Shown here: positions 26,123 to 63,140 of the stretch, piece after piece
Numbering within the stretch: position 1 is the first letter of the stretch
Layout: each line of letters starts with the position of its first letter
From: Patescibacteria group bacterium
Lineage (GTDB): Bacteria > Patescibacteriota > UBA1384 > CAJBMM01
Assembly (NCBI GenBank): GCA_041660565.1
Contig: JBAZWC010000001.1
Location: 366,481 to 430,480 of the forward strand
Reading direction: 5' to 3'
DNA length: 64,000 bases
Program-made: the position numbers and the translations under genes
The notes under the pieces: generated by a model
What the model saw: only the letters and a program-made list of their open reading frames with translations
Told to the model about the DNA's origin: nothing
Databases searched by the model: none

Positions 26123-26126
26123 CGCC

Positions 26127-27084: not shown

Positions 27085-27122
27085 GTACATAGCTAGAACA
27101 TTAAAAATTTGCAAAAAATCAT

Positions 27123-27952: not shown

Positions 27953-28065
27953 ACATTTGTAGAATTCCGTCGCAGACATTTTTGATACCAACATGAAAGT
28001 GTTGGTGTTTTTTGTTACAAAAAAACCTACTCATTCAAGTAGGATGTAATCGCCAGAAAATAGAA

Positions 28066-28094
28066 GCGGGAGGCAGCCAATTGGCTGCCTCCCG
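28066..28094. terminator. Perfect GC-rich palindromic hairpin (gcgggaggcagcc-aatt-ggctgcctcccgt) downstream of the secreted paralogue gene
   Basis: 13-bp perfect stem. Same hairpin family at 29031-29059 and 29990-30018. Confidence 0.55.
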
Positions 28095-28123
28095 TGTGAG
28101 ACAGGTGTTGCCGGCGCCGTGGG

Positions 28124-28753
28124 CTAGTCGTGGCCTTGCGGGCAGGCCCGGACATAGTCACCGGCGAATACGCCCGTCACCTGTGTCCCGTAGTTGTACT
28201 GGTTGTCGCGGCAGTTGGAGACCCCGACGTAGTATACGCGGTAGGACGCCGGGTAAATGATGCGCCACGTCCACATCTGCCCGTTGAAGTAGAACTCCTG
28301 GTGTGTCGGAATGATCGCCGAGTTGTTGGCCCACGTTAGCCTGGAGTTGAAGTAGTGTGGCGCATCGGTATCATATTCGTGCGTGCTATTCCAGTACCAA
28401 TCGTACGCCATGGCATGCGTGGCCCACGTCAACTCCTCATGCCACAGCTGGTTACCAACAGCGTCGTACGTGCCATTGGTGCCGCCGTACACCGACTGCC
28501 AAGTGGTCGTGGCGTTGGCGTCGGTGTAGAAGACCCACCTCGGGTGGATGGCGAAGGTCGCGTTGGCATTACCATTGGTGTATGGTTGACCCATCCACTC
28601 GAAGACGAAGAAGACCTCATCTGTCGTGTAGTTGTACGCGCACTCCCAGTCAACCTCGATGTTCGAGTTGTTGAGGTACCCAGGGGTCGCCTGAGCCATC
28701 GTCGGGAAGAGCATGACGGCCAGCGCCGCCAGCAGAACGAGATGCTTACGCAA
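28124..28753 (-). CDS. Secreted W/Y/N/T-rich protein, paralogue A1 (about 209 aa), high-GC island
   Basis: Signal peptide MRKHLVLLAALAVMLFPTMAQA. TTG start preceded by GGAG. C-terminus …CPQGHD. About 60% identical to 29092-29724. Confidence 0.65.
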   Translation of the reverse strand: MRKHLVLLAALAVMLFPTMAQATPGYLNNSNIEVDWECAYNYTTDEVFFVFEWMGQPYTNGNANATFAIHPRWVFYTDANATTTWQSVYGGTNGTYDAVGNQLWHEELTWATHAMAYDWYWNSTHEYDTDAPHYFNSRLTWANNSAIIPTHQEFYFNGQMWTWRIIYPASYRVYYVGVSNCRDNQYNYGTQVTGVFAGDYVRACPQGHD

Positions 28754-28990
28754 TTTCTTCTCCTAGCCCACAAACCGCGGGGGCGGGGTCGGTACTGCAT
28801 GATGGGTACGACAATCATCGTACGGCATACGGCACCCGACTTGGCTAGTCTTACATCACGTCGATAGGCGCATTCCCCCTTGATTCCGACCGAACCAAAA
28901 CCACTACCGGTCTTTTGGAAACCACATCTGTGTGGAATCCACCAGATAAGTAAGTTGTTCAGGTTCGGTGCTGTAATACACACAAAAGGT

Positions 28991-29059
28991 ATAATAACAC
29001 ATCCATATTATTTATGTCAATATATTATAAGCGGGAGGCAGCCCGAAGGCCGCCTCCCG
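28991..29059 (-). promoter_or_regulatory. Terminator hairpin followed by TTGACA-18-TATTAT promoter, a repeated module upstream of each secreted paralogue
   Basis: Hairpin gcgggaggcagcccgaaggccgcctcccgt (29031-29059). Minus-strand -35 at 29015-29020. Module repeated at 29950-30018. Confidence 0.5.
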
Positions 29060-29091
29060 TGTGAGACAGATGTTGCCGGCGCCGTACCGGA

Positions 29092-29724
29092 CTAGTCGTG
29101 GCCCTGCGGGCACGGCCTGAGCTTATCTTCCGAGAAGAAGCTGAAGGGGTCCCCCCAGTTTCGGTTGTTATCGCAACACTTGGTGTCAACGTGGTACGCC
29201 ACGCGGTAAGTCGCGGGGTAAATGGCGTCGTAGTGATACATGTAAGGCGGAATGCCATCCCACACGAGCACGTAATGCCTAGGGATAACCGCCGAGTTGA
29301 GCGCCCAGGTCAGGTGCGAGTTGAAGTAGTGAGTCGTACCGTCGTAGCTGGCGTTCGATGTATCCCATTCCCACCCGTAGGTCATGGCGTGAGTAGCCCA
29401 GGTTATGGACTGTTGCCACAGTATGTTGCCAACTGCGTCGTAAACACCTCCGGAGCCGTACACTTCGTTCCACGGGATAGTGCCGGCGGAATCGGTGTAG
29501 AAGATGTAACACGGGTGAATGGTGAAGTCGGCCTCGGCTGACCCATTGCTTGTCGGCATTCCGCTCCACACGATGTTGTACGAGACGATATCAGTGGTGT
29601 TGTTGTAGGCCACATCCCACTGAATCGTGATGTCGTCAACGGATACGTATCCCGGTGTTGCCGATACGGGGAGCTGGGCAAACATGACGACCAGGGCCGC
29701 CAGCAAAACGAGATGCTTACGCAA
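29092..29724 (-). CDS. Secreted W/Y/N/T-rich protein, paralogue A2 (about 210 aa)
   Basis: Signal peptide, TTG start, C-terminus …RPCPQGHD. Shares a roughly 290-nt conserved upstream leader with A1. Confidence 0.65.
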   Translation of the reverse strand: MRKHLVLLAALVVMFAQLPVSATPGYVSVDDITIQWDVAYNNTTDIVSYNIVWSGMPTSNGSAEADFTIHPCYIFYTDSAGTIPWNEVYGSGGVYDAVGNILWQQSITWATHAMTYGWEWDTSNASYDGTTHYFNSHLTWALNSAVIPRHYVLVWDGIPPYMYHYDAIYPATYRVAYHVDTKCCDNNRNWGDPFSFFSEDKLRPCPQGHD

Positions 29725-30045
29725 TTTCTTCTCCTAGCCCTCAAACCACGGGGGCGGGGTCGGTACTGCACCGAGTGTACGGCATACAGCGCCCGACTTG
29801 GCTAGTCTTACGGCTTCACGACAATAGGCATTTCCCCCTTGATTCCGACCGGACCAAAACCACTACCGGTCTTTTGGAAACCACTCCTGTGTGGAATCCA
29901 CTAGATAAGTAAGTTGTTCAGGTTCGGTGCTGTAATACACACAAAAAGTATAATAACACATCCATATTATTTATGTCAATATATTATAAGCGGGAGGCAG
30001 CCCGAAGGCCGCCTCCCGTGTGAGACAGATGTTGCCGGTTGGCCC

Positions 30046-30546
30046 TTAGGGGGCAATCCATGCAGTCGTCGCGGACGTGGCGGTAGCACCGTCACCCTTC
30101 ACGTACACCTTCAGGGTGACGAGTATGTACTTGTACGGCCACGGGACGTAGTAGGTGATGTCCCTATACGATTGGAAGCTCGGCCGACCCTCGTCGTAAT
30201 CGGCGTAGTCCTGCCAGATGATGTTGCCGTTCTCGAAGGCCTGCGCTCCGGCCGTCTGACCGGAGGCAGAGCAGCTCCCCTTGAGGTCGCAGGTGATGCC
30301 TCCAGAAGTACCTATCCACAACCCGCTCTGCCACGCGTAGACAACAGAGTATGTCGCCGTGGCGTAGCTGTCGTTCTCGTCGTGCCCGACGCCCTTGAGA
30401 TATCCGGAACCGACCGTGAACGTCCCGGTACCGGTGGTGCTGGTGATGACCGGGGTGGTCTGGGTCATCACCCAATCAGCCATCGAGGAGACGGACAGCG
30501 ACATCAGCGCGCAGATCGCAACGAACAGCATGGTTAGACGCTTCAT
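30046..30546 (-). CDS. Secreted Gly/Thr/Tyr-rich protein, paralogue B1 (start at MKRLTMLFVAICALMSL…)
   Basis: Signal peptide. Shared motifs GNDENDSYATATY, WQDYADYD and WPYKYxLVTLKVYVKG with 30805-31308. Confidence 0.6.
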   Translation of the reverse strand: MKRLTMLFVAICALMSLSVSSMADWVMTQTTPVITSTTGTGTFTVGSGYLKGVGHDENDSYATATYSVVYAWQSGLWIGTSGGITCDLKGSCSASGQTAGAQAFENGNIIWQDYADYDEGRPSFQSYRDITYYVPWPYKYILVTLKVYVKGDGATATSATTAWIAP

Positions 30547-30804
30547 TGCTTGGCTCCTGTGTGGTTTGATACAACTGAGCGGGGTCGTTTTGTCTCTGCT
30601 GGGGGCATACGACCACAATGTACGTCACCTGGCTTGGCTGGACTAATATCGATTAGCCATCACCTCCTTTAGGAGTTGCGCAAGCCCGACTCCTTTTTGA
30701 TTGCGATACGACTGAACTTGTCGAACCGCCAGCATATCAACAGTTGGCGACTTGCGCGGGCTACAGGGTACCCACATTATGTGGTTATCGGCTTATGCGC
30801 CAAC

Positions 30805-31308
30805 TCAGTACGTTAACGCTGCGGCGTATGCGGTAGTGCCAGTGCCCTTCACGTACACCTTCAGGGTGACGAGCACGTACTTGTACGGCCACATGACGTA
30901 GTAGCCGTAGTTTTCCGCCGAGTCGTAGGACGTCGGCCCGTCGTCGTAATCGGCGTAGTCCTGCCAAACAATGTTGCCGTTCTGGAAGACCTGCGACCCC
31001 GCCGTCTGTCCAGCCGATGAGGATTGCCCACTGACTATACCCCTGATTCCCCCATTGAAGCCTAACGGTAAACCAGGGCCAACCCACGAGTAGACGACAG
31101 CGTACGTCGCCGTGGCGTAGCTGTCATTCTCATCATTGCCGGTGCCCGATAGTGAGTTGACGCCAGCCACGAAAGTGCCGGTCCCGGTAATCGAGTTGAT
31201 GGTAACAGGACCCTCGAACATCACCCAACCGGCAGGGACAGCCATGGAGGCGACGGACAGCGACATCAGTGCGCAGAAAGCGACGAGCAGCACAGTGAGA
31301 CGCTTCAT
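30805..31308 (-). CDS. Secreted Gly/Thr/Tyr-rich protein, paralogue B2
   Basis: MKRLTVLLVAFCALMSLSVASMA signal. Paralogous to 30046-30546. Confidence 0.6.
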   Translation of the reverse strand: MKRLTVLLVAFCALMSLSVASMAVPAGWVMFEGPVTINSITGTGTFVAGVNSLSGTGNDENDSYATATYAVVYSWVGPGLPLGFNGGIRGIVSGQSSSAGQTAGSQVFQNGNIVWQDYADYDDGPTSYDSAENYGYYVMWPYKYVLVTLKVYVKGTGTTAYAAALTY

Positions 31309-31520
31309 TGCTTGGCTCCTTTTTGATTGCGATACGACTGAGCGTTACGACCGTAAAACACCTGGGTACGCAACAGGATCTTCGAGACCAGCTGTATTCC
31401 CCTTGCGATTCCTGTCAGTAATGGACTAAGTAGGTTGTTCAGGTTCAGCGCTGTAAAACACAATCAATATATTAACACATCCATATTATTCGTGTCAACA
31501 TCCGATGCAACAATAAGTAT

Positions 31521-38478: not shown

Positions 38479-38526
38479 TCGCTCTAATAATACTTTAATC
38501 CTTTATCGTTTTTTGACAAATAATTA

Positions 38527-38556
38527 GGGCGGGCACGGCATTCGCCACACCCGCCC
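38527..38556 (-). terminator. GC hairpin GGGCGGG…CCCGCCC within a 43-nt sequence identical to 39513-39556
   Basis: acaaataattagggcgggcacggcattcgccacacccgccca duplicated 3' of both alpha-CTD-like genes. Confidence 0.55.
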
Positions 38557-38567
38557 ACCGCGAGGAA

Positions 38568-39395
38568 CTATCGGAACTTCTGGGGCACGTTCTCGGCGTC
38601 CGCTAGCCGATAACCGTTCTCGCCCAACCTCTGTACCACCTCGCTGTAATCGCTCCGGTTGAAGCCACGAATCGTTGATAACGCGGCCGGGGTGCACGCA
38701 GCCAGCTGCAGAATGGTTAGAATACCCGACTTCTGTAGCAAGCCACAGGTACGAGCAGGAAAGCCGAGCTCGATGATCCGCCTGATAGTGTCGAGACGCT
38801 CGCTCTTGCGGTGTACTTGATCGTCAACGCCGTCGATCTCCCACACTAGCCTACGGGCATCGTGACCCGCCTTACCGAGCAGCCGAGACAGCCGACTCAC
38901 CCGCCCGTGAAGATTGGCGTTCACATCCATGACGCTTTTTGTCCGAGCAGAGAAGCCAACCACCTCCTCGGCCACCCGACCGTCCATGAACAGCGAGATG
39001 GCGGTAGTTGACGCCACTCTTCCCAATTGCTGGGCCAGAGCGGTGCGCAATAACAGGTCGGCGCGCATGGCAGAAAATGCCCGCTCATCCTGCAACACCA
39101 GCTTCGCCCGATCTTGTCCTCTCTCGCTGGTCAACCAGTCCCAGAAGAAGCGATAAAAGCTCTGATCGATCTCTGTCCGGCGCAAGAGAATGTCAAAGCT
39201 GACCGCTTTGTGTTCACGCTCGTGGTAGAACGTCCGCGCATCCTTGACCGTTGCCGACGCGATGATGGCGTCCATCAGAAGATCGTAGTTTGGCCAGCAA
39301 TGCGACAACCAGAACTGCTTCGCCTCGGGCAGCACATCCGGAATCAGCTCCCACAACCGCTTCAGGTTGTTAAACGTATTTCTTTGCCCCGCCAT
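38568..39395 (-). CDS. Hypothetical protein with C-terminal RNA-polymerase alpha-subunit CTD-like (HhH) domain, high GC
   Basis: C-terminal ARTCGLLQKSGILTILQLAACTPAALSTIRGFNRSDYSEVVQRLGENGYRL resembles alpha-CTD (…SVRSxNCLKxxGIxTVGDLVxxSExELLKIPNFGKKSxxEIxxxL). GAGGAGGG Shine-Dalgarno. Confidence 0.6.
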   Translation of the reverse strand: MAGQRNTFNNLKRLWELIPDVLPEAKQFWLSHCWPNYDLLMDAIIASATVKDARTFYHEREHKAVSFDILLRRTEIDQSFYRFFWDWLTSERGQDRAKLVLQDERAFSAMRADLLLRTALAQQLGRVASTTAISLFMDGRVAEEVVGFSARTKSVMDVNANLHGRVSRLSRLLGKAGHDARRLVWEIDGVDDQVHRKSERLDTIRRIIELGFPARTCGLLQKSGILTILQLAACTPAALSTIRGFNRSDYSEVVQRLGENGYRLADAENVPQKFR

Positions 39396-39471
39396 CGCTC
39401 GCCCTCCTCAGGGTCTCGTGTTATTCATGTTCGAGACGCAAAGAACAATGCTGCGCCAACGTAATGCGCTG

Positions 39472-39500
39472 ATTATATCATTATCGTTATGTATCGTCAA
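39472..39500 (-). promoter_or_regulatory. Consensus promoter TTGACG-17-TATAAT for 38568-39395
   Basis: Minus-strand -35 at 39495-39500, -10 at 39472-39477. Confidence 0.55.
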
Positions 39501-39525
39501 TATTTGTTTTATTTACAAATAATTA

Positions 39526-39555
39526 GGGCGGGCACGGCATTCGCCACACCCGCCC
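39526..39555 (-). terminator. GC hairpin terminator, identical copy of 38527-38556
   Basis: Identical 43-nt block. Confidence 0.55.
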
Positions 39556-39568
39556 ACTTGCGGGAAGA

Positions 39569-39985
39569 CTACCAGAAATCCTTTGGCAACACATCGGCTT
39601 CGGCCAACTTAACGCCGAGAATCTCCAACTTCTGCAGAACCTCGTAGTAGCCTTTTTTCCCGAAGTTGCGAACAGATGCCAGCTCGGACGGAGTCAACTC
39701 AACCAAGTCAGCAACGGTTAATATGTTAGCCCTCGCGAGTGACTTAAAAGGCCTGACCGAGAGACCAAGATCCCCAATCCATATATGGAGAATCGCTTGA
39801 GGAGTCTGAGCATCCGTGTCAGCGGCACCGCCCGCTAGAAATCGCTCCAGATCCCTTCCCTTCAGCTTTTCCTTGAAAAGGCTGACCAGCCGAAGGTTCT
39901 GCACCCTCAGCCGGCGATTCTCCTCTAGAACAGCTTGGCACTGCTCAAAGGAGACCAGCCCCTCCGAAGACTCTGTATCCACCAT
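39569..39985 (-). CDS. Small protein (138 aa) with C-terminal RNA-polymerase alpha-CTD-like domain, high GC
   Basis: LSVRPFKSLARANILTVADLVELTPSELASVRNFGKKGYYEVLQKLEILGVKL is alpha-CTD-like. C-terminal tail LAEADVLPKDFW parallels LADAENVPQKFR of its neighbour. Confidence 0.6.
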   Translation of the reverse strand: MVDTESSEGLVSFEQCQAVLEENRRLRVQNLRLVSLFKEKLKGRDLERFLAGGAADTDAQTPQAILHIWIGDLGLSVRPFKSLARANILTVADLVELTPSELASVRNFGKKGYYEVLQKLEILGVKLAEADVLPKDFW

Positions 39986-40036
39986 CGTCTAACCCTCCTT
40001 AGGGGGTATATTGTCGTGTACAAATCCAATACACAA

Positions 40037-40065
40037 ATTCTAACATTATTTTTATTCATTGTCAA
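40037..40065 (-). promoter_or_regulatory. Consensus promoter TTGACA-17-TAGAAT for 39569-39985
   Basis: Minus-strand -35 at 40060-40065, -10 at 40037-40042. AAGGAGGG Shine-Dalgarno before the ATG. Confidence 0.55.
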
Positions 40066-42275: not shown

Positions 42276-42896
42276 ATGAACAAAATTGATCTAAAAAAGA
42301 ATTTGAAGGATTTATACAATCCTAAAACCAACGTAATTGCCGAAGTTTTGGTGCCAAAAATGAACTTTTTAATGGTAGATGGTAAGGGTGATCCAAATAC
42401 ATCAAAGGAATTTGTAAATGCCATAGAAGCGTTGTACCCGGTGGCATATACGATAAAATTTGATATCAAAAAAAATCTAGGCAAAGATTATGGGGTAATG
42501 CCACTTGAAGGGCTGTGGTGGTCAAGTGATCTGAGTGATTTTGCCACCGGTAAAAAAGATAACTGGTTCTGGACGTTAATGATAATGCAACCCGAATTTG
42601 TAACCAAAGACCTGTTTGAAAAAGCGCTAGAGAGCGTAAAAGCCAAAAAGCACCCAGCATTCATTGATAAAGTGCGCTTTGAATCGTTTGAAGAGGGCAA
42701 ATCGGCACAGCTGATGCACATTGGCCCGTTTGCCGCCGAAGGGCCAAATATCCAAAAAATCCACGACTATATAAAAGAAGCAGGTGGAAAGTTTGATGGC
42801 ATGAAGCAGAAACATCATGAAATCTACCTGTCGGATATGCGTAAAACCGCACCAGACAAGCTCAAAACCATCCTCCGCCAAGCTTTTGTGAAATAG
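42276..42896 (+). CDS. GyrI-like small-molecule-binding domain protein
   Basis: …GVMPLEGLWWSSD…WFWTLMIMQPEFV…HHEIYLSDMRKTAPDKLKTILRQ is the conserved pattern of the GyrI-like/AraC-effector-binding family. Confidence 0.65.
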   Translation: MNKIDLKKNLKDLYNPKTNVIAEVLVPKMNFLMVDGKGDPNTSKEFVNAIEALYPVAYTIKFDIKKNLGKDYGVMPLEGLWWSSDLSDFATGKKDNWFWTLMIMQPEFVTKDLFEKALESVKAKKHPAFIDKVRFESFEEGKSAQLMHIGPFAAEGPNIQKIHDYIKEAGGKFDGMKQKHHEIYLSDMRKTAPDKLKTILRQAFVK

Positions 42897-42960: not shown

Positions 42961-43314
42961 ATGTTAAGCAAATTTGCGTCAAAATTTACTTGGTCGTCGC
43001 TGATATTGTCAGTCTATTGGGTTTTGTTGTCGGTCATTATGGATGATCGCGCACAAAATATTTATCAGAACATACCAACAAGTCCGCCGATATTAAAATA
43101 CGCAATTGATGCAATATTATTATTATTTCTCATCGCAATCCCCATTATCTTTGTATATACAATGATTGTTTATATCAAAATTGCGATGCAAGCTAATTCT
43201 TTAATAAAGCAAATCCCAACCACAATAAATGAAAAGGGGGTCACTGTAGCTCTCCCTCTTATCTTCGATTTAATATTCCTTCTGCTACCACTTTATTTAC
43301 TTTCACATCGGTGA
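42961..43314 (+). CDS. Small hypothetical membrane protein within a duplicated-flank insertion
   Basis: 3 TM helices. Flanked by a 45-nt direct repeat (42852-42896 and 43347-43394). Confidence 0.4.
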   Translation: MLSKFASKFTWSSLILSVYWVLLSVIMDDRAQNIYQNIPTSPPILKYAIDAILLLFLIAIPIIFVYTMIVYIKIAMQANSLIKQIPTTINEKGVTVALPLIFDLIFLLLPLYLLSHR

Positions 43315-43346
43315 TAATTGAGTGCTACTCGGTTTAATGAAAGTGC

Positions 43347-43394
43347 CGCGCCGGACAAGCTCAAAACCATCCTCCGCCAAGCTTTTGTGAAATA
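43347..43394. repeat. Direct repeat of the last 45 nt of gene 42276-42896 (…gacaagctcaaaaccatcctccgccaagcttttgtgaaatag)
   Basis: Near-exact duplicate of 42852-42896 including the stop codon. Confidence 0.7.
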
Positions 43395-43414
43395 GCGGTA
43401 ATTATCTTCTCTTA

Positions 43415-44021: not shown

Positions 44022-44240
44022 TTGGAGAATAAAATGGACAAAACAGAATCGCAAAAATTTGCGCGAGACGTCGAAGAAAATGTGCTGAAAAGCGTTCAGG
44101 AAGATAAATTTCCGTTGTGGCGCAGATCGCACTGGGATGAATGGGGCTCACCGGTTGGTTTAGGCCTAAGCTGGGCGCTGTTTATTATCCCGTTAGGATT
44201 GTTCCTGTACTTTCTGCACTTGGCCGGACTGATTAAATAA
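44022..44240 (+). CDS. Small hypothetical membrane protein
   Basis: 72 aa, one C-terminal TM. Weak support. Confidence 0.3.
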   Translation: MENKMDKTESQKFARDVEENVLKSVQEDKFPLWRRSHWDEWGSPVGLGLSWALFIIPLGLFLYFLHLAGLIK

Positions 44241-44663
44241 GTCCCGGGCGAGTCAACTAAAAAATCAGCTGCAACAGGCTGATTTTTTAGAAAAATAAAA
44301 TAATAAGTTATTTTTGAAAAAGTTTAGGCGCTTCGCGGTGAATTGCGAAACGCCTTAGGCTGTACCGCTGTGTTCACTAACCCTCGTTAGTTTCAGTACC
44401 TTTGGCAGGAATCCACTCGCCGTTGGTATCGATACGGCACGGAAGAATCACAACAGGCGGCACCGGCAAACGCCCCGCGGAGTCAGCTGAAGACGACGCC
44501 CCTCCAACACCAAGCAGGTGTCTGCGAGATTCTTCACATTGGGCCAAATACCTCACATTGTACATGATCCCGTTTCCCCCTATATTACCACTTTAGCAAA
44601 ATTCACTTTGATTGCCCATAAATTAAAAAGCCAGCTATTGTGGCTTTTCTCAAAACTTATTAT

Positions 44664-44738
44664 TGGCTCCCCGGGTCAGATTCGAACTGACGACCAACTC
44701 GTTAACAGCGAGCTGCGCTACCGCTGCGCTACCGGGGA
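44664..44738 (-). tRNA. tRNA-Asn (anticodon GTT), CCA encoded, with a hairpin+T-run terminator just downstream (about 44620-44650)
   Basis: Reverse complement TCCCCGGTAGCGCAGCGGTAGCGCAGCTCGCTGTTAACGAGTTGGTCGTCAGTTCGAATCTGACCCGGGGAGCCA. Confidence 0.85.
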
Positions 44739-44808
44739 ATAAATGATTTTCTATCCACATAATAGCATTTTTGCCGCTATCTCGCAACATGCCAGACGTG
44801 ACTATCAA

Positions 44809-45267
44809 TCAGCTGCAGCCCAGTATGATTTTGATTTTATTTATATACACTCGCTCCCAATACCACATAGAAAACCAACCAAATAATGGCTTTGCGAAAA
44901 TACGCAAAATGATATTGGCTTTTGAAAGATCATAATTATAAGAATAATTAATTCTGGTGCCGTTTTCGACATCTTCCATTAAAAACTCTTCGTGCCCGGT
45001 GGCTTTGAATACAGGGTTAATGTTGTCCGAGATATATCCTTTTCCCGGAACAAGTGTTGTTTTCATAGTTACCGAAATTGGAGGAGTACCAAAAGATTTT
45101 GCTTCTGCGTGAATAAGTAAGTTGTTGCCATCTTTGCTGACAATTTTCACCGAATGTGCAACCTGCGGAAAATTCTTTGGCAAATTTTCAAAATCAGTCA
45201 CTATTTTATAAATAGATTCTCTGGGAGCTTTTATTATCCAACTGTTTTTGAGGTGAATTTTTGTCAT
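44809..45267 (-). CDS. SRPBCC (START/Bet-v1/polyketide-cyclase-like) domain protein
   Basis: 152 aa with typical beta-alpha-beta grip composition. Low-to-moderate support. Confidence 0.5.
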   Translation of the reverse strand: MTKIHLKNSWIIKAPRESIYKIVTDFENLPKNFPQVAHSVKIVSKDGNNLLIHAEAKSFGTPPISVTMKTTLVPGKGYISDNINPVFKATGHEEFLMEDVENGTRINYSYNYDLSKANIILRIFAKPLFGWFSMWYWERVYINKIKIILGCS

Positions 45268-45377
45268 TTGTTTTTATTATAATTTAAAATTAACCAGGTT
45301 GTAATGCCACGGAAAACTATCAAAAACGAACTCGGATAAAATATCAAACGTATATTCGTACAAAAAATTTGTTTTTA

Positions 45378-45405
45378 TTGACATATTTGAACAATACGCT
45401 ATAAT
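45378..45405 (+). promoter_or_regulatory. Consensus promoter TTGACA-16-TATAAT
   Basis: -35 at 45378-45383, -10 at 45400-45405, before a GGGAG Shine-Dalgarno and the ATG at 45439. Confidence 0.55.
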
Positions 45406-45438
45406 ATTATCTATCACAGCTCTTCACGGGAGTTTTCC

Positions 45439-45795
45439 ATGATGGTCATGAAGCAGGTGCCTGAGGACAGGCAGCGGGTCCAATATTGGAGCCGGTCACT
45501 TCTTGTCCTTGGGTCGTATGTGCTGATAGGGTGGGCGTGGAGTTGGTGGGTTGCCATTGCAGCGCTGCTCATCATGTCAGTTGCGGTGGAAGGGCAGCTC
45601 AAGAATGTGAATGGCGTGGCGGTTCGGCGAACAATGGCTGAGATGATGGCGTCAAGAAGCCGATATGTCGGTGGCCTGATCGTGGCTCTCGTCGCAGGCG
45701 TTGCTTCGATAGCCACTGGGCACATCGCGATTGGGGCTCTGTGGCTCATCATCGTCGCCTGCGCCCACTTTCCCGTACCATGCTTTCGCACGTGA
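45439..45795 (+). CDS. Small high-GC integral membrane protein (cassette 1)
   Basis: 3-4 TM helices. Chosen over the antisense ORF 45414-45791 on the basis of promoter, Shine-Dalgarno and terminator orientation. Confidence 0.5.
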   Translation: MMVMKQVPEDRQRVQYWSRSLLVLGSYVLIGWAWSWWVAIAALLIMSVAVEGQLKNVNGVAVRRTMAEMMASRSRYVGGLIVALVAGVASIATGHIAIGALWLIIVACAHFPVPCFRT

Positions 45796-45802
45796 TGCCA
45801 AC

Positions 45803-45850
45803 TAGGGCGTTTCCGCAGAACATCGCGGAGGCGCCCTAACTTTTTATTTT
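45803..45850 (+). terminator. Rho-independent terminator (tagggcg…cgcccta + T-run). 36-nt core identical to 46428-46463
   Basis: gggcgtttccgcagaacatcgcggaggcgccctaac followed by tttttatttt. Confidence 0.7.
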
Positions 45851-45870
45851 GAATTTGACGAAATTCACTA

Positions 45871-45899
45871 TTGACTATTACGCAACAGTATGATATAAT
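45871..45899 (+). promoter_or_regulatory. Consensus promoter TTGACT-17-TATAAT
   Basis: -35 at 45871-45876, -10 at 45894-45899. AGGAGG Shine-Dalgarno before the ATG at 46006. Confidence 0.55.
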
Positions 45900-46005
45900 A
45901 CTGTTGTTTTGTAATTTAATAACATATTTATAAGCACAGCGTTGTGTATATCCGTTTGGGTGTGCAGATCGCTGTGTTTATCTACATGGTAAATAGGAGG
46001 AAACC

Positions 46006-46416
46006 ATGGCACGCAGACCAACTCTCGACGAGTTGCGCCAGTTGGCAACTTGGGGGGACATCAGCCACGTGGTTGACCGCTGGTATCGCGGACACCAAGT
46101 ACCTCCCGAAGTGATGGAGGCGGTGCAGGTGGGGTACTACGCGATGGCGCGGAACTGGCTCAAGTCGATGCTGCCGGCAAAGATGTATCGTCGCATCACA
46201 CCGGGCGAACAATACCCGGCCTACCAGTCAGTCGAGACCCGGAACGGACGAGTCCAGATCGGGTCGTACTCGCTGGGACAGCGGCTGACCGCAGCGCGGC
46301 GCTGGGCCACCAAGGCCAAGTTGCCGCTGGAAAAGATCGCGGCAGATTACGGCCTGACTCACTTGCTCGCGGTAACACCCGAGCCTGAGCCAGATCCGAT
46401 CCCGCGCGGCTCATAG
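46006..46416 (+). CDS. Hypothetical high-GC protein (cassette 2)
   Basis: 136 aa with Pro/Glu-rich C-terminus. Strong Shine-Dalgarno and promoter. No recognisable motif. Confidence 0.5.
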   Translation: MARRPTLDELRQLATWGDISHVVDRWYRGHQVPPEVMEAVQVGYYAMARNWLKSMLPAKMYRRITPGEQYPAYQSVETRNGRVQIGSYSLGQRLTAARRWATKAKLPLEKIAADYGLTHLLAVTPEPEPDPIPRGS

Positions 46417-46427
46417 CATTCCATCGC

Positions 46428-46470
46428 AGGGCGTTTCCGCAGAACATCGCGGAGGCGCCCTAACTTTTAT
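46428..46470 (+). terminator. Rho-independent terminator, duplicate of 45803-45850
   Basis: Identical 36-nt hairpin core followed by a T-run. Confidence 0.7.
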
Positions 46471-46554
46471 CTGATTAAAAAAATAAGACCATCAACGGTC
46501 TTTTTTTAGTAACTACCTTATGTCATAAAACTATCACAAAAATAAAGGAGGAAT

Positions 46555-46890
46555 ATGGCGAATATCGTCAATAAATCATTCACAGAGTCAAACGAAAATG
46601 TGACACCGGAAAAAACCAGGGTTGAAACGGCAACGTTAATTGATCACGAATTTCAACGCGTTACCGCTGAACCAGGTTGGCAATGGTCAAAACATTCAAA
46701 ACCGGTGGTTGGCGGCAAAAGCTGCCAAAAACATCATTTGCTCTATATTATTTCAGGTAGAATTGCATCAAGAATGTCCGATGGAGATGAGGTAGAGTTT
46801 GGCCCGGGTGAAATTGGGATTATCCCTCCCGGCCATGATGGCTGGACAGTTGGAGACGAACCGGCAGTCTGGCTCGAAATCCCCCACTAA
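46555..46890 (+). CDS. Cupin-domain protein (host-like GC)
   Basis: …HHLLYIISGRIASRMSDGDEVEFGPGEIGIIPPGHDGWTV… (cupin 2 beta-barrel motifs). AAAGGAGGAA Shine-Dalgarno. Confidence 0.6.
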   Translation: MANIVNKSFTESNENVTPEKTRVETATLIDHEFQRVTAEPGWQWSKHSKPVVGGKSCQKHHLLYIISGRIASRMSDGDEVEFGPGEIGIIPPGHDGWTVGDEPAVWLEIPH

Positions 46891-46953
46891 TTATTAAAAG
46901 AATAGGCCCCGACGCATTGCGCGCCGGGGCCTTTGGGCTGGGTATGGGCTGGA

Positions 46954-48513
46954 TTAGCTGGCGGACTTCTGCTCCACCTCGGTCAACGCGATCACCTGTA
47001 GCAGCCGCCCGAGGAGCAACTCCATCTTGGGATCGTTCGGAGCCTTTCGAGTCTCCGACGCGATCTTGAGCAGATCAGTGGTGGCCAACTTAAGTGCTTC
47101 CAAGTCGCCGGCGTTTGATGCCTGGGCCACCTTGTCAACACCCGCGAGCCTGTCCTGTTCAATCTGCGCATACTCGGCAACTGCCTCGCCATAGACGCGG
47201 GCATAGCCGAGCGTACACAGCATTCGCGACAGCCCCTCGCCAGCGGTGATCGGATGCTGCCCGAGCAGCGCCAGCACATTCACGGGCTCAGAAACCGGGG
47301 TCGGTTCGGGCTCAACCGGTGCCGGTGTGTCCGGCATCGGTTCGGGCTGCGGCGGCAGGTCGGGCTGGGTCTTCGTGGTTAGCGCCGCAATCTCTGCCTT
47401 TGCCTTTTCCGACAGTCGGCAGTGATACCGAATGTGGGACAACGCCTCGGTCTTCTCCAGCAGTCCGTTCTGGATCGCAACCCGAAGGAAACTGCCGGTA
47501 GCTCCATCCGACAGTCCAAGCTGTCCGGAAACAACCTTCCCGGCGTCGCCCGCTTGGGTACCGTCCGCGTGAGTAGCCTTCTTCGCGATCTCTTCGAGAA
47601 CGAGCAGCATCCAGCCGTACTCGTCGGTGCCCTGGACGAAGTACTTGCTGACGATGCCCTTGTTCGGCCTTGCCGGGGTAGGCGATGCGGGTAACTCGGG
47701 AACTGCCGGTGGCGGGACTAACACCTTCCCTTCATCGGTCAGCTTGTAGCCGATGACCGCTGGTGGCATCCCCTCAGCCACGGCTTCAAGCAGCTTGGCA
47801 TCCGCCAACATCGACAGCGCCGTCTCGGCATCGAGATACGACAAGGACTGGAACTCAGTCCGAACCCCCTCTGTGCAGGCCTGGGTCGCAAGAAATGCCC
47901 CGTTGCTGCACATACTCGAGATGTACCCCAGAATCCGAACCACGTGGCCATCGGTGGAGTCGATCAGCCCGTGGAACCACACCCTGTCGAACTCCGCCTT
48001 AGCATTCCTCCTCACTTCCTCATCCTCCTTGGCAGCAAGTAGCTGCCTGACAGCTTCACGCCTTTCGACGATCATCTCCTCGTGGTGACTGGCGCGCTTC
48101 TGGTCTTCGGCCAGAAACATCTCGTTGGCGCACTCACACGCCATGAGCAGAACGCGGTCAATGTGATTCTTGTCCAATGCGCAGCAGCTGGCCGGGAAAT
48201 CGACCCACCACTGCATGCACGTGTCTGTGCCTCCAGGCTGGAACATCAACTTGAACCGCTTGTTCTTATCGAGCCCCTTACCGACAATCTTCACTCCTCG
48301 ATCTGCCCTAGACCCCTGCTTCTTCCTGCAGAAACTGGCGTCGATCGTCAGATCGGCATCACCAAACGGGTCTGCGCAAACCGGTGCCACAATTGCAGCA
48401 AAGCTCTCCAGAAGTTTCTGGATTACTTGAGGCACCTGGTCTTCACCGGGCAAACCGGCGCCACGATGGCTGGAGTTACGCACAACCCGTGCGCAAATCT
48501 GTGGTACGGCCAT
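46954..48513 (-). CDS. Hypothetical 519-aa high-GC protein (Cys-rich N-terminal region, Pro-rich linker), possibly of plasmid or phage origin
   Basis: Long ORF with TTGACT-17-TATAAA promoter and GAGGGGG Shine-Dalgarno upstream (48514-48590). No recognisable motif. Confidence 0.55.
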   Translation of the reverse strand: MAVPQICARVVRNSSHRGAGLPGEDQVPQVIQKLLESFAAIVAPVCADPFGDADLTIDASFCRKKQGSRADRGVKIVGKGLDKNKRFKLMFQPGGTDTCMQWWVDFPASCCALDKNHIDRVLLMACECANEMFLAEDQKRASHHEEMIVERREAVRQLLAAKEDEEVRRNAKAEFDRVWFHGLIDSTDGHVVRILGYISSMCSNGAFLATQACTEGVRTEFQSLSYLDAETALSMLADAKLLEAVAEGMPPAVIGYKLTDEGKVLVPPPAVPELPASPTPARPNKGIVSKYFVQGTDEYGWMLLVLEEIAKKATHADGTQAGDAGKVVSGQLGLSDGATGSFLRVAIQNGLLEKTEALSHIRYHCRLSEKAKAEIAALTTKTQPDLPPQPEPMPDTPAPVEPEPTPVSEPVNVLALLGQHPITAGEGLSRMLCTLGYARVYGEAVAEYAQIEQDRLAGVDKVAQASNAGDLEALKLATTDLLKIASETRKAPNDPKMELLLGRLLQVIALTEVEQKSAS

Positions 48514-48654
48514 TAGTTATCCCCCTCTCTCGGTTATTCAAGATCTTAGTGAATACTTTATATCATATTTTTATATCAAAGTCAATAGAAAACCGTGAGT
48601 GACTGTCATTCCGGTCCGCCAGCTGGCGGATGACCCAGAACCCATGCTTTCTTG

Positions 48655-48745
48655 GTGTCATTCCGGGCTTGATTGTTCTGCTAAGAACTAACGACTCCAG
48701 CCGCAAGGCAGTGAGGAGTATCCGGAATCTATGTAAAAGATTATT
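48655..48745. repeat. GTCATTCCGG…TCCGGAATCTATG palindromic element (copy of 24255-24345)
   Basis: About 88% identity to 24255-24345. Adjacent partial unit at 48600-48650 shares ccgccagctggcggatg with 43946-43966. Confidence 0.65.
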
Positions 48746-48868
48746 AAGGATATCTAGAGATCTCGCAATGGATTCCATTTCCCATTCTCTATCTACCATC
48801 CTCCAACAAAGAAAGACGCCCGGCGGTCTCGCCGCAAGGCGTCTAGTTATGACGACGATGGTTCGTCA

Positions 48869-49078
48869 TCACTTAGTTCCGTAGATCCCCGGAAACGGGG
48901 TCATAACACGGTCCTGGGGGCGGTTCAGCCTCATGATGCGTACGTCCGCCGATTCTGCCCGACCAATCGCCTGACGTCTCTCCTCATCGGTATTTGCGGC
49001 CTCTAGATCGGCTATCAGCTTCCCACCCGCCTCCGTCCCGTAGGCGCCAATAGTCCACCGTTTTTGCTCCTCAGTCAT
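48869..49078 (-). CDS. Hypothetical small protein (high-GC mini-operon, gene 3)
   Basis: Start overlaps the stop of 49075-49356 (ATGA-type overlap). Confidence 0.35.
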   Translation of the reverse strand: MTEEQKRWTIGAYGTEAGGKLIADLEAANTDEERRQAIGRAESADVRIMRLNRPQDRVMTPFPGIYGTK

Positions 49079-49356
49079 GCCACTACCTCCTTTTCGAGAT
49101 TCATGTCATCCCGCTCCAGACGTTTCCGGACAAAGCCCCGGATGCTGCGCGGTCCGTAGTACCCTCGGTCATCCTCGTCCTTGACGAATGGACAGACAAA
49201 CAGTTCGTCCATCGTCGACGGACAGGTAACCAACTCAAACTCTAGCCCCGGGACTTTCTTCATTTCGCTCATCGCCTCGTCGTTATCCGCTCCATCAGTT
49301 ATGACAAAGAGCGAAACCCCTAGTTTTTGGTCGCTCATTGCTGCATTACCTCCCAT
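49075..49356 (-). CDS. Hypothetical small protein with vWA-like LFVITDGADNDE segment (possible fragment)
   Basis: 93 aa. Motif resembles the vWA TDG loop. Possibly a gene remnant. Confidence 0.35.
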   Translation of the reverse strand: MGGNAAMSDQKLGVSLFVITDGADNDEAMSEMKKVPGLEFELVTCPSTMDELFVCPFVKDEDDRGYYGPRSIRGFVRKRLERDDMNLEKEVVA

Positions 49357-49367
49357 TCGGTGATCGA

Positions 49368-49568
49368 CTAGTCCAACGAGTCAAACCGAGCATCCTCCCA
49401 CGACATCCGACGAGCCTCGGCCAGCAAGTCTAGCTGCCGGTCAATCCTTGCACCCAACTCGTCCCTCGCGGCCACGATACGTTTCGTCGGACGCGGAAGT
49501 AGAACCGGCCCGCCACCTTGAACCAGCCGGTCCAGGAAAATGCGGGTTGATGATGGCTTTGTCTTCAT
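49368..49568 (-). CDS. Hypothetical small protein (start at MKTKPSS…; the track ORF extends into a repeat element)
   Basis: 66 aa. The upstream extension is encoded by the palindromic repeat at 49672-49745. Confidence 0.35.
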   Translation of the reverse strand: MKTKPSSTRIFLDRLVQGGGPVLLPRPTKRIVAARDELGARIDRQLDLLAEARRMSWEDARFDSLD

Positions 49569-49671
49569 TACGTCTCTCCCAATGAACCGAGATATTATCA
49601 ATGTTATGTGAAGGTTCAGCTTTGTTATCAGCTTTAGATTACAGCGACATTTGCCTTGACGCAATAGTCTC

Positions 49672-49745
49672 TTTGTCATTCCCGTGAAGACGGGAATCCA
49701 GACTATGAAAATATTTTCCACATAGATTCCGGATCAAGTCCGGAA
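49672..49745. repeat. Palindromic GTCATTCC…GGAATGAC element containing an inverted TCCGGAATCTATG module
   Basis: gtcattcccgtgaagacgggaatc … catagattccggatcaagtccggaatgaca. Confidence 0.55.
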
Positions 49746-49761
49746 TGACATGGCCGAGTGA

Positions 49762-49789
49762 TTGACATTTTAGAATTGTAGAGTATAAT
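49762..49789 (+). promoter_or_regulatory. Consensus promoter TTGACA-16-TATAAT
   Basis: -35 at 49762-49767, -10 at 49784-49789. GGGAGGTG Shine-Dalgarno before the ATG at 49834. Confidence 0.55.
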
Positions 49790-49833
49790 TTGGACTAGTC
49801 GCTACATTCTTCACTGAGGGAGGTGAGACAGGG

Positions 49834-50202
49834 ATGTTGTATGTCTGGATTGGAGACATCGCTCCAGACGTTGATAGCGAATACGTCCGCCGACTGGAGC
49901 TGGAAGTGGAGACGACAATCGGTCATGCCGTTCACCCCAGACCAGTCAAGTGTTGGGCAGCAAGGGCATTTCGCTGCTCCGATGAGCCACAGCAGACACC
50001 TTCGGTCATGACGATCCATGTCATCTCGGCAGGACCGATCCCGGCAACAGACGTGGATCGACTCCAGCAGCTACTTCATGAGATCGCGCTCAGGTTCATC
50101 ACGGATTGCAATTCAGGACAACATGGGTTAGCAGTTATGGTAGTAGGCTACTCCCGCGACCCGCTGTCCTACCAGTACCTAACGACTGACGACACGCCCT
50201 GA
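49834..50202 (+). CDS. Hypothetical high-GC protein (cassette)
   Basis: 122 aa, strong Shine-Dalgarno, followed by a terminator. No recognisable motif. Confidence 0.45.
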   Translation: MLYVWIGDIAPDVDSEYVRRLELEVETTIGHAVHPRPVKCWAARAFRCSDEPQQTPSVMTIHVISAGPIPATDVDRLQQLLHEIALRFITDCNSGQHGLAVMVVGYSRDPLSYQYLTTDDTP

Positions 50203-50211
50203 TCAGCTCAA

Positions 50212-50252
50212 AACCGCCTACTGCAACCCCGCAGCGGGCGGTGATTTTTTTG
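50212..50252 (+). terminator. Rho-independent terminator (aaaccgcc…ggcggt + TTTTTTT)
   Basis: Hairpin with inner ctgcaaccccgcag, then a T7 run. Could serve both 49834-50202 (+) and rpoD (-). Confidence 0.6.
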
Positions 50253-50359
50253 TACGACAAGGGTGGGCGGACACATAGGTCCGCCCCTACGTTGCTAGAT
50301 TAATCATTGTGATTTCGAAATTTATTTCAAATTTCAAATTGTAAATTTCAAATTCGTTA

Positions 50360-51490
50360 CTATCTCAAATAGTCCTTAAGACGATCGGATTGTTCGTTTT
50401 TCTTCAGTTTTTGTAGTGATTTTGCTTCAATTTGGCGAATACGTTCACGCGTTACCCCAAACTCTTGCCCTACTTCTTCCAGCGTGTGCGCTTTACCATC
50501 TTCGTTTAGCCCAAATCGCATTCGTAGAATTTTTTGCTCGCGCGCAGCTAGTGTGTCCAAAAATTCATCCACATGCCCACGCAATAGCTGGTAGATGGCT
50601 GATTCTTCCGGGCTTAGGCTTTCTTTGTCTTCCAAAAAATCGCCCAGCTTTGAGTCTTCTTCTTCACCAACCGGCGATTCCAGCGAGACCGTTTCTTGGC
50701 TAATCTTTAAAATATGCTCAACTTTATCTACTTCTAGGCCCATTTCGGCTGCAATTTCTTCCGGCAACGGTTCGCGCCCTAAATCTTGCACTAGCTGACG
50801 CTGTACCCGAATTAATTTGTTGATCGTTTCAATCATATGCACCGGGATACGGATGGTGCGAGCTTGGTCGGCGATGGCACGGGTAATGGCTTGGCGAATC
50901 CACCAAGTAGCGTAAGTGGAAAACTTGTAACCTTTTTTGTAGTCAAATTTCTCTACCGCGCGCATTAAACCGGTGTTGCCCTCTTGAATTAGATCGAGTA
51001 GCTGCAAACCACGGCCAATGTATTTTTTCGCGATTGCCACCACCAAACGCAAGTTGGCCTCGGATAACCGTTTTTTAGATAGCTCATCACCTCTAGACAT
51101 TGCTTTGGCTAGCTGAACTTCTTCGGTTGGAGTTAATAGTGGGATGCGTCCGATTTCACGTAAATACATTCGCACCGAATCATCGGAAATGTCACGCAGA
51201 TCGATTGAATCAAAATCGTCATCTTCTTCTAGTGATTTGATTTGTTCCGGAGAAACCAAGCGCGCCAAAATTCCACCGGCGGCGGTGTCTTTGACTTCGA
51301 TGCCACGGCGATAAAAATAATCGAATAGTGCGTCTAGCTGCGGAATATCATCTTCAATGTTCGGAAATGCTTGTAACATTTCTTGAGTTGTCACAAAGCC
51401 ATGAGTTCGGCCTTTGCGAATTAGAGCAACCAGCTGGTCTTGAAAATCCAACGGCTCTTCGGTTTTTAATTTTACTACGCGTTTTGTCAT
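50360..51490 (-). CDS. rpoD: RNA polymerase primary sigma factor (short RpoD/SigA, 376 aa)
   Basis: Regions 1.2, 2 (…[29 protein letters not shown]), 3 and 4 ([24 protein letters not shown]). Classic dnaG-rpoD arrangement. Confidence 0.95.
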
Positions 51491-51539
51491 ATTTGCATTA
51501 AAGACGAATTACGAATTCAAAATTCGAAACTTTTTTAAA

Positions 51540-51595
51540 ATTAGATGCTTCGCATCGAAATCACTCGCAGAATGCTCGCGATTATCAAATCCGTC
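51540..51595. repeat. 55-nt element (gatgcTTCGgcatc-like hairpin plus tcgcga core) in the dnaG-rpoD spacer. Second copy at 59139-59195
   Basis: ttagatgcttcgcatcgaaatcactcgcagaatgctcgcgattatcaaat versus 59139 ttagatgcttcgcatcgaaatcactcgcaatttgctcgcgattatcaaat. Confidence 0.6.
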
Positions 51596-53398: not shown

Positions 53399-53495
53399 TC
53401 TAAAAATGTCATTCCGGATTTAATCCGGAATCTATATAAAAAATCTTTTATAGTCTGGATCCCGGGTCGAGCCCGGGATGACAGCTCGGGATACT
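53399..53495. repeat. Compound palindromic repeat (gtcattccgga-ttta-atccggaatc and atcccgggtcgagcccgggat-gacagctcgggata) related to 55748-55940
   Basis: Shared …tctggatcc…gggatgacagctcg.gata… module with 55850-55945. Confidence 0.55.
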
Positions 53496-58943: not shown

Positions 58944-59138
58944 GATCTTACTATAAAATTTTTAAGCTCAAATGTCTAATATTCCTCCTCATCCGCCCTC
59001 CGGGCACCCCGCTAAGCGGGGTTGAGGGACGCTTAGCGTCCCACCTTCTCCTCTAGAGGAGAAGGGAGCTTCCAATTAAGCCAATCAATCCAATCAGACC
59101 AATTGTGATCAGAGAAAAAATCCTTTCCATCATTAAAA

Positions 59139-59195
59139 ATTAGATGCTTCGCATCGAAATCACTCGCAATTTGCTCGCGATTATCAAATTTCAAA
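59139..59195. repeat. Second copy of the 55-nt dnaG-rpoD spacer element, upstream of the P-type ATPase gene
   Basis: 50/55 identical to 51540-51595. Confidence 0.6.
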
Positions 59196-62971: not shown

Positions 62972-63020
62972 ATCAGATGACAGAGGACGGAAGACGGAAA
63001 ACTGAGAGTGTCATATTATT

Positions 63021-63140
63021 CTGTCATTTCGACTCTGCGAGAATGTCGATTCGAGCGTGTTGGCCTCCGGCTCGTAGACCCTCCGGGCGTAAGTCCTACG
63101 GGCTGGAGCCTACGGCTCGGAGAGAGAAATCTTAAAAAAG
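63021..63140. repeat. Left-end partial copy of the TTGTCATTTCGAC MITE-like element
   Basis: ctgtcatttcgactctgcgagaatgtcgattcgagcgtgttggcctccggctcgta… is about 85% identical to 18796-18850. Confidence 0.55.

Follow-up and report, generated by a model that had tools for sequence, protein, structure and literature searches.

GC-rich, moron-like transcription units of probable foreign origin interleaved with native genes between tRNA-Asn and rpoD of a Patescibacteria chromosome

Results

Layout and anatomy of the array

The 64-kb stretch analysed here (64,000 nucleotides; "the window") lies on contig JBAZWC010000001.1 from an uncultured member of the Patescibacteria, or candidate phyla radiation (CPR). 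The contig belongs to a metagenome-assembled genome whose source run is SRR18595301, is 516,109 bp long and is held both at NCBI (locus tags WC773_020xx) and at JGI. Our subject is the array of small GC-rich units between the tRNA-Asn gene and rpoD, the gene for the primary sigma factor. Five high-GC segments (GC 0.53-0.63; GC at third codon positions, GC3, 0.60-0.75) alternate here with host-like DNA of GC ~0.42, the native genes having a GC of ~0.42 and a GC3 of ~0.36-0.45. From the tRNA gene to rpoD the GC content swings between ~0.3-0.45 and 0.55-0.67 over a few hundred bases, with sharp shifts at the borders of the units. Windows of 300 nt with a GC of at least 0.53 cover 80% of positions 44664-50260, which shows that the composition of the region deviates from that of the host.

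The high-GC stretches correspond to open reading frames (ORFs), and in the called frames GC3 exceeds GC at first positions, which in turn exceeds GC at second positions. This order is usual for real genes of GC-rich genomes. The parts of a unit follow one another in a constant order, namely an AT-rich spacer with the promoter, a short GC-rich leader with the Shine-Dalgarno sequence, the GC-rich ORF, and at the end a hairpin, likewise rich in GC, with a T tract after it. A Shine-Dalgarno sequence was found 6-10 nt upstream of the start codon at each high-GC ORF. The units, named B, C, E, H-G-F and I (Table 1), occur in both orientations and are interspersed with two genes that have the composition of the host and encode an SRPBCC protein and a cupin. 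A further unit, Z, lies on the opposite side of tRNA-Asn from the main array, and its protein is a singleton on the 516-kb contig. According to Rfam, the tRNA is the sole known RNA within the region.

The promoters of B, C and I score 11-12/12 against the consensus, and that of E, which was read directly from the minus-strand sequence, scores 10/12 with an extended -10 element (TGn). Each unit of the main array, H-G-F included, has a predicted factor-independent terminator of its own. As to the products, B is a small, predicted membrane protein, C a conserved small basic protein and E a large acidic ORFan; the C and E proteins both contain PEPEP-type stretches rich in proline and glutamate.

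The original prediction, made from the sequence alone, had placed at least six units between tRNA-Asn and rpoD, most of them with near-perfect promoters, strong ribosome-binding sites and terminators. The array itself was confirmed. One of those listed (46500-46900), however, proved to be the native cupin gene, which has no consensus promoter, and another (48869-49568) a mini-operon of three genes. Likewise, the description of the promoters holds for B, C and I and in a weaker form for E, whose -10 element reads TATAAA, but neither the cupin gene nor H-G-F has a near-consensus promoter. The ribosome-binding sites and terminators were found as described, with Shine-Dalgarno sequences at all high-GC units and terminators at the five positions given in Table 1.

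Table 1. Coordinates of the units and of other features in and around the tRNA-Asn to rpoD region (positions in the window)
Feature	Position	Strand	Description
Unit B	45378-45850	plus	promoter TTGACA-16-TATAAT (12/12) 45378-45405; Shine-Dalgarno GGGAG 45428-45432; terminator T1 45803-45838, then T tract
ORF B	45439-45795	plus	118 aa, hydrophobic, basic; GC 0.58
Unit C	45871-46470	plus	promoter TTGACT-17-TATAAT with TGn (11/12) 45871-45899; 5' leader of ~100 nt; Shine-Dalgarno AGGAGG 45995-46000; terminator T2 46428-46461, then T tract
ORF C	46006-46416	plus	136 aa; GC 0.63, GC3 0.75
Unit E	46954-48585	minus	promoter TTGACT (48585-48580), 17-nt spacer, TGn-TATAAA (48562-48557), 10/12; Shine-Dalgarno GGGGGA
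ORF E	46954-48513	minus	519 aa; GC 0.60, GC3 0.72; acidic, linkers rich in Pro/Glu
GC-rich hairpin	46904-46932		between the convergent cupin gene and E; reads as minus-strand terminator for E
Unit H-G-F	48814-49568	minus	three-gene high-GC mini-operon; terminator hairpin 48814-48844
ORF H	49368-49568	minus	66 aa
ORF G	49075-49356 or 49075-49338	minus	93 aa, or 87 aa in the NCBI annotation
ORF F	48869-49078	minus	69 aa
Unit I	49762-50250	plus	promoter TTGACA-16-TATAAT (12/12) 49762-49789; Shine-Dalgarno GGGAGG; terminator 50213-50242, then T tract
ORF I	49834-50202	plus	122 aa; GC 0.55
Unit Z	44326-44565	minus	62-aa high-GC ORF 44377-44565; Shine-Dalgarno AGGGGGA; terminator T3 44326-44355
tRNA-Asn (GTT)	44664-44738	minus	ARAGORN and Rfam; landmark only
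SRPBCC (polyketide-cyclase-like) gene	44809-45267	minus	Pfam PF10604 and PF03364; native, GC 0.36; outside the foreign set
Cupin gene	46555-46890	plus	111 aa; Pfam Cupin_2; native composition, GC 0.46, GC3 0.41
Host-type hairpin repeats in spacer	48605-48743	plus	GTCATTCCGG hairpin from 48605; 88-nt element 48656-48743
75-nt structured host repeat	49675-49749	plus	ends GTCATTCC...GGAATGAC; divides H-G-F from I
rpoD, primary sigma factor	50360-51490	minus	Sigma70 domains; native, GC 0.45; right boundary of the region, followed by dnaG

Near-consensus promoters and strong terminators go with the high-GC ORFs

Near-consensus promoters, taken as those scoring at least 11/12, occur 10 times in the window, where 1.6 +/- 1.1 are expected. 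The 8,963 nt of intergenic DNA hold 9 of them, against an expectation of 0.24 +/- 0.5 when each spacer was shuffled separately. Eight of the 10 serve high-GC ORFs, the remaining two belonging to the tmRNA gene and to one native gene, and the strong GC-rich terminators of the window belong to high-GC ORFs in every case (10/10). Since high-GC genes make up only ~30% of the genes, these associations are unlikely to have arisen by chance (binomial p = 1.5e-3 for the promoters and 5e-6 for the terminators; Fisher p = 6e-4).

The architecture is not confined to the tRNA-rpoD region. About 32% of the 64-kb window falls within 300-nt windows of GC at least 0.53, and a like arrangement, with unrelated genes, recurs at 23.2-27.0, 28.1-31.3, 32.9-34.3 and 38.5-40.1 kb. 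The highly expressed core genes of the window (rpoD, clpB and dnaG) have a normal GC content. Among the matches listed from scans of genomes and metagenome contigs, the closest relatives by RpoD are L083 (69% identical) and L001 (67% identical); these show no synteny with the region, and their rpoD neighbourhoods (25.6 kb in total) contain no near-consensus promoter and no high-GC ORFs.

The promoters of C and E have more in common than their hexamers. P_C (45868-45898) and P_E (48558-48588), which are in inverted orientation, share CTATTGACT...TATGATATAA and are 77% identical over 31 nt; the promoter at 39472-39500 also carries TGATATAAT. The motif common to P_C and P_E may represent the optimal extended -10 element of the host or, alternatively, a copied promoter module. 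The promoter of the tmRNA gene (27056-27514) reads TTGACA-17-TACAAT. This gene diverges from a high-GC minus-strand operon (25588-27010) with several small membrane-protein ORFs, and a GIY-YIG-like ORF of GC 0.30 lies 3' of it at 27605-27952.

Shared terminators and spacer repeats

The original prediction had noted two terminators with an identical 36-nt core. The duplication is real and exact, but its length is 41 nt: positions 45804-45844 (T1) and 46428-46468 (T2) are 100% identical. Beyond these 41 nt, units B and C have no similarity in DNA or protein, and the identity ends exactly with the hairpin and its T tract. The terminators of Z, B and C, together with that of the C homologue on contig L163 (see below), align as one family with the invariant pattern GGCGTTT.CGCA...CGCC..AA.CTTTT, whereas ORFs Z, B and C are unrelated to each other. 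A single module, specific to this lineage and re-used locally, probably gave rise to the terminators of Z, B and C. The orthologous terminator on L163 has diverged, yet T1 is identical to T2; one of these two is therefore probably a recent copy of the other, or the two were homogenised by gene conversion. We read the shared terminators as the outcome of local duplication or conversion of control modules and not of site-specific recombination.

Terminators and flanks are shared elsewhere in the window too. On the minus strand at 38509-40065 there are two neighbouring high-GC genes (38568-39395 and 39569-39985), whose products are stand-alone RNA polymerase alpha C-terminal domain (alpha-CTD) proteins (PF03118). 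Each gene has a near-consensus promoter, the two have a 50-nt terminator in common (96% identity), and their proteins are 37% identical over 68 residues. Stand-alone alpha-CTD proteins of foreign composition are odd in a CPR genome. At 28061-31480 there is a tandem high-GC array for secreted proteins, in which the products of 28124-28753 and 29092-29724 share 49.5% identity; a further two related genes are found at 30.1-31.3 kb. The promoter and 5' untranslated region at 28873-29079 is 98% identical to that at 29832-30038. In this array the promoter and 5' untranslated region and the terminators (at 28061, 29026 and 29985) are kept at 88-98%, with 78% for the third terminator copy, whereas the ORFs are ~50% identical. 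Either the ORFs may be diversifying within conserved flanks, or the flanks may be undergoing conversion.

Two repeats occur in the spacers of the main array. The 88-nt element is 89% identical to 24259-24346, and each copy has on one side the terminator of a minus-strand high-GC unit and on the other the promoter of the unit that follows; its folding was no better than that of shuffled sequence. The 75-nt repeat has a second copy at 53406-53480 (minus strand), upstream of dnaG. It folds into a three-way junction, with z-scores of -3.9 and -4.7 and compensatory changes in one hairpin, and is either a MITE-like element (that is, like a miniature inverted-repeat transposable element) or a small structured host RNA. 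The 88-nt and 75-nt elements have their ends in common and, in inverted orientation, together flank H-G-F. The motif GTCATTCCSG was found at 7 places in the window, with an expectation of 0.23.

Other repeats were seen outside the array. A 50-nt direct repeat (42847-42896 and 43346-43395; 96% identity, 499 nt apart), the first copy of which is the 3' end of a GyrI-like gene, flanks a very AT-rich ORF for a 117-aa membrane protein (42961-43314; GC 0.34). This ORF with its flanking repeats looks like an insertion with a duplicated target. Native intergenic DNA contains further repeat families of 57 nt (93% identity; 51534-51590 and 59133-59189) and 51 nt (94%; 18793-18843 and 63019-63069), and one of these repeats is in the rpoD-dnaG spacer.

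The units differ in age

A search with tblastn of all units against 167 fetched loci gave matches in L163 and L164 only. These two 1.6-kb contigs of another metagenome (ANAN16-1_SAMN03842437) carry the one homologue found for ORF C (P0012; 61% identity). On L163, the C homologue (GC 0.57, GC3 0.62) is followed by a terminator of the same family, a spacer with a hairpin repeat, an orthologue of the cupin gene (62.5% identity) and an unrelated low-GC gene on the opposite strand. This last gene occupies the position that E has in the window; E is absent there.

Both conserved genes are under purifying selection, with a non-synonymous divergence (dN) from L163 of 0.26 and a ratio to synonymous divergence (dN/dS) of 0.15 for C, and a dN of 0.25 and a dN/dS of 0.07 for the cupin gene. 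The equal dN and the kept gene order indicate that C already stood beside the cupin gene in the common ancestor, and that C is functional. At least the C unit is thus old and vertically inherited, while E is either a later gain in the host lineage or a loss in the lineage of L163. The array thus combines units of different ages and is not a recent pile-up. The original prediction had named, as the finding that would speak against it, cassette ORFs conserved as core genes in the same order in all relatives. In L163, the sole relative found, that is the case for C and the cupin gene, which are kept in order and at equal divergence, but not for E.

Searches for relatives and donors

In agreement with what had been claimed of their function, none of B, C, E, F, G, H and I had a significant match in Pfam, PHROGs, PADLOC or NCBIfam. 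The sole PHROG hit, of E to phrog_747, had an E-value of 0.034 and was not significant. For B, F, G, H and I the search covered these profile libraries and, in the case of B, G and I, phage collections as well: tblastn against 50,697 phage genomes yielded nothing for these three, and IMG/VR yielded nothing for E, G and I. A word-indexed search of 5.8 billion proteins and an exhaustive HMMER search of 1.84 billion representatives returned only E itself for E. The complete ORFan status of this 519-aa protein, whose gene has a clean coding signature, is notable. At the 90% cluster level, all units were singletons.

Structure-based searches gave a similar picture. Sequence searches of the PDB with E and with the C alignment returned no match. 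The AlphaFold2 model of E had a predicted local distance difference test score (pLDDT) of 42 and was unusable. That of C had a pLDDT of 79, and no fold matching it was found in the PDB or BFVD (best E-values 1.3 and 0.55, respectively; TM-scores below 0.33).

Outside the region, the window contains one high-GC gene with identifiable relatives. The gene at 24438-25511 (minus strand), which is similar to galactose-1-phosphate uridylyltransferase genes (GalT-like), has a 74% identical homologue in a genome of uniformly 68% GC (L165), and its named matches are from Armatimonadota. It is a clear case of cross-phylum transfer into a CPR genome. These high-GC homologues demonstrate directly, for a member outside the tRNA-rpoD region, the horizontal origin of the high-GC gene class. 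For the ORFs within the region, it is the composition that points to a foreign origin.

Discussion

A mosaic of insulated units

We consider it probable that the region between tRNA-Asn and rpoD is a compositional mosaic of moron-like, horizontally acquired transcription units of differing age in a CPR chromosome. As part of this reading, at least six high-GC segments (Z, B, C, E, H-G-F and I) were probably acquired horizontally and now stand within AT-rich, host-like intergenic DNA between native genes. The original prediction had spoken of foreign ORFs re-fitted with host control signals. This is upheld by the contrast in GC3 (0.60-0.75 against ~0.41 in native genes) and by the sigma-70 signals of host type in the AT-rich spacers, but the region is not purely a recent accretion.

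Each segment would then act as an insulated transcription unit. The host sigma-70 RNA polymerase would start at the near-consensus promoter in the AT-rich spacer, aided in some units by an extended -10 element, and the primary sigma factor encoded next door may drive strong and separate transcription of each unit. That the host sigma factor uses promoters of this kind is supported by the tmRNA gene, with its TTGACA-17-TACAAT promoter. The strong Shine-Dalgarno sequence would drive translation, and the GC-rich intrinsic terminator would block read-through and insulate the neighbouring genes. The array as a whole may have been built by separate insertions at different times.

Several points weigh against this reading. 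Near-consensus promoters were not found for H-G-F in the promoter scan, and promoters and terminators are described here as consensus and sequence matches, as distinct from measured transcription. Gene C is GC-rich in both lineages (GC3 0.75 and 0.62) across ~40% protein divergence, which is hard to square with an old transfer that simply ameliorated. The comparison of ages draws on one relative and a 1.6-kb fragment of it, and covers C and E. Moreover, no donor was found for any ORF within the tRNA-rpoD region, so that the case for foreignness there is one of composition.

Alternative origins of the array

The array could instead be what is left of a single mobile element near tRNA-Asn, either a high-GC prophage or plasmid or an element of the CPR lineage, that decayed and was later broken up by host DNA; its units would then be true phage morons or early genes. 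The small ORFan-type genes with moron anatomy would fit such an origin, as would the PEPEP-type stretches of C and E, the CTATTGACT...TATGATATAA sequence of P_C and P_E and the adjoining tRNA gene, and the one terminator family of the otherwise unrelated Z, B and C could mean a common source. A prophage was nevertheless rejected: there is no significant PHROG match and no phage-related Pfam match in or near the region, be it to an integrase, a terminase, a capsid protein or any other, and the neighbours are tRNA-Asn, rpoD and dnaG. To this are added the missing matches of B, G and I in the phage genomes and of E, G and I in IMG/VR. Pfam identified no recombinase or integrase among 19 ORFs (nine in the region and ten flanking it, within 40-64 kb), nor did NCBIfam and PADLOC. 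A classical tRNA island was rejected as well. The halves of the tRNA gene have no second copy in the window at up to 3 mismatches, positions 44200-50400 contain no tRNA-derived repeat of 12 nt or more that could be att-like, and the individual units are not bracketed by direct or inverted repeats of the kind expected of target-site duplications. The main array lies 5' of the tRNA gene behind a native gene, and the interleaved native genes have orthologues in the relative, where C is present and E absent. The adjacency to tRNA-Asn therefore does not look causal. Nor is the arrangement peculiar to this locus: the same architecture, with unrelated genes, is found at four other places in the window. 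In sum, we hold descent from a single element to be unlikely, if the least unlikely of the alternatives. A cassette array of the integron type, or an attC cluster without integrase in which the terminator hairpins are the recombination sites, had been suggested by the wording of the original prediction, which also stated that no integrase or attC was seen. That latter statement agrees with our scan of the ORFs and inspection of the hairpins. In favour of cassettes, the hairpins lie directly 3' of the ORFs, two are identical over 41 nt, the family is common to three unrelated ORFs, and shared terminators are also seen elsewhere in the window, in two other groups of two or three high-GC units. 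However, attC sites are imperfect palindromes of ~55-140 nt with RYYYAAC and GTTRRRY cores, whereas these hairpins are perfect GC stems of 30-36 nt followed by T tracts, which is the anatomy of an intrinsic terminator, and the identity of the repeat ends with them. The best GTTRRRY-like string within them, GTTAGGG (6/7), is not conserved, the orthologous site in L163 reading GTTTAGG. There is no tyrosine recombinase in the ORFs scanned, and, unlike promoterless, co-oriented cassettes under a common Pc promoter, the units lie on both strands and four have a strong promoter of their own. We thus reject the integron reading as very improbable.

The high-GC ORFs might also be old, lineage-specific native genes whose GC is held by selection or local mutational bias and whose strong promoters mark high expression. 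Gene C, kept beside the cupin gene in a distant relative under purifying selection and still GC-rich, is what this would lead one to expect, as is the fact that all units are singletons with no detectable donor. The GC excess, however, is largest at third codon positions, one member of the class, the GalT-like gene, has clear high-GC donors, E is absent in L163, and the closest rpoD neighbourhoods among the matches listed are devoid of such ORFs, while rpoD, clpB and dnaG have normal GC. This makes a native origin improbable in our view. Finally, reads of a high-GC organism could have been joined to the CPR contig during assembly. The contig does come from a metagenome assembly, and its GC switches repeatedly over a few hundred bases, but the switches coincide with the borders of promoters, Shine-Dalgarno sequences, ORFs and terminators. 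The junctions of E with its promoter and with the cupin gene were independently re-assembled by a second assembler (Logan contig L081), the C/terminator/cupin junction is also present in the unrelated metagenome of L163, and JGI and NCBI hold the same 516-kb contig. A chimera is accordingly scarcely credible. An engineered or synthetic construct was likewise rejected, the contig being environmental and one junction recurring in the unrelated contig of ANAN16-1_SAMN03842437.

Significance and comparison with known systems

CPR bacteria, whose genomes are tiny, are thought to rely on other cells, and what they gain by horizontal gene transfer (HGT), and how these gains are expressed, is poorly known. 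In the window studied, the strongest promoters and terminators are almost exclusive to GC-rich, foreign-looking units. Should this be true of the whole genome and of related lineages, recently domesticated and probably highly expressed accessory genes of uncultured bacteria could be recognised by a simple sequence signature, namely a consensus promoter and a strong terminator around an ORF of deviant GC. The region also yields a set of complete ORFans, including the 519-aa E, as candidates for expression testing. A wider scenario, which we put forward as distinctly unlikely as a whole, is that this CPR lineage regularly domesticates foreign genes. GC-rich fragments from neighbour or host cells, possibly obtained by DNA uptake, would be fixed as insulated, strongly expressed units. 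The parts would be supplied from the host side, namely near-consensus promoters within AT-rich spacers, a terminator module that can be used again, and border repeats that form hairpins. The set (ORFans, arrays of secreted paralogues and stand-alone alpha-CTD proteins) might serve as an arsenal against a host or partner cell, and the shared terminators and conserved flanks might serve as homology arms for the swapping of ORFs.

Known array and cassette systems resemble the region in part. Like integron cassettes, it is an array of short, unrelated and mostly single-ORF foreign units, with a repeated hairpin after some of them, but neither an intI gene nor sites of the attC type were found, the units face both ways and mostly have promoters of their own, and native genes lie between them. 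Like tRNA-linked islands, it consists of DNA of foreign composition that adjoins a tRNA gene; here, however, neither an integrase nor a repeat of the tRNA end was found, and the array lies mostly 5' of the tRNA gene with a native gene in between.

In anatomy the units match the morons of phages. A moron consists of one ORF or a few, is equipped with a promoter and a terminator of its own, and deviates in GC content from its neighbours, which indicates horizontal transfer and independent expression (Juhala, Hendrix and colleagues; Cumby et al. 2012, PMC3594210). The units of the region similarly combine an own promoter (H-G-F excepted), an own terminator and a GC content unlike that of the neighbouring genes. 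Morons, however, are additions to phages or prophages, seen by comparison with related phages, whereas the units described here stand among the housekeeping genes of a cellular chromosome, and no phage gene was found close to them. They are also numerous, ~30% of the 64-kb window being high in GC, and at least one of them is old and vertically inherited. We would therefore call the region moron-like in its anatomy and presumed working, and not a moron in the strict sense.

HGT into Patescibacteria from diverse donors has been reported, with up to 13% of genome length attributed to it (PMC12455944). The islands described there are comparable in that streamlined CPR genomes gained genes horizontally, as in our window the GalT-like gene with its Armatimonadota-like donors. 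They differ in that the available part of that text describes no architecture of one promoter and one terminator per gene and does not contain the word 'promoter', and in that the units reported here are only 0.4-1.7 kb long, alternate with native genes and consist largely of ORFans. HGT and islands in Patescibacteria are thus already documented, and what is new here relative to the available part of that study is the architecture of a promoter and a terminator per gene and its tight link to GC-deviant ORFs.

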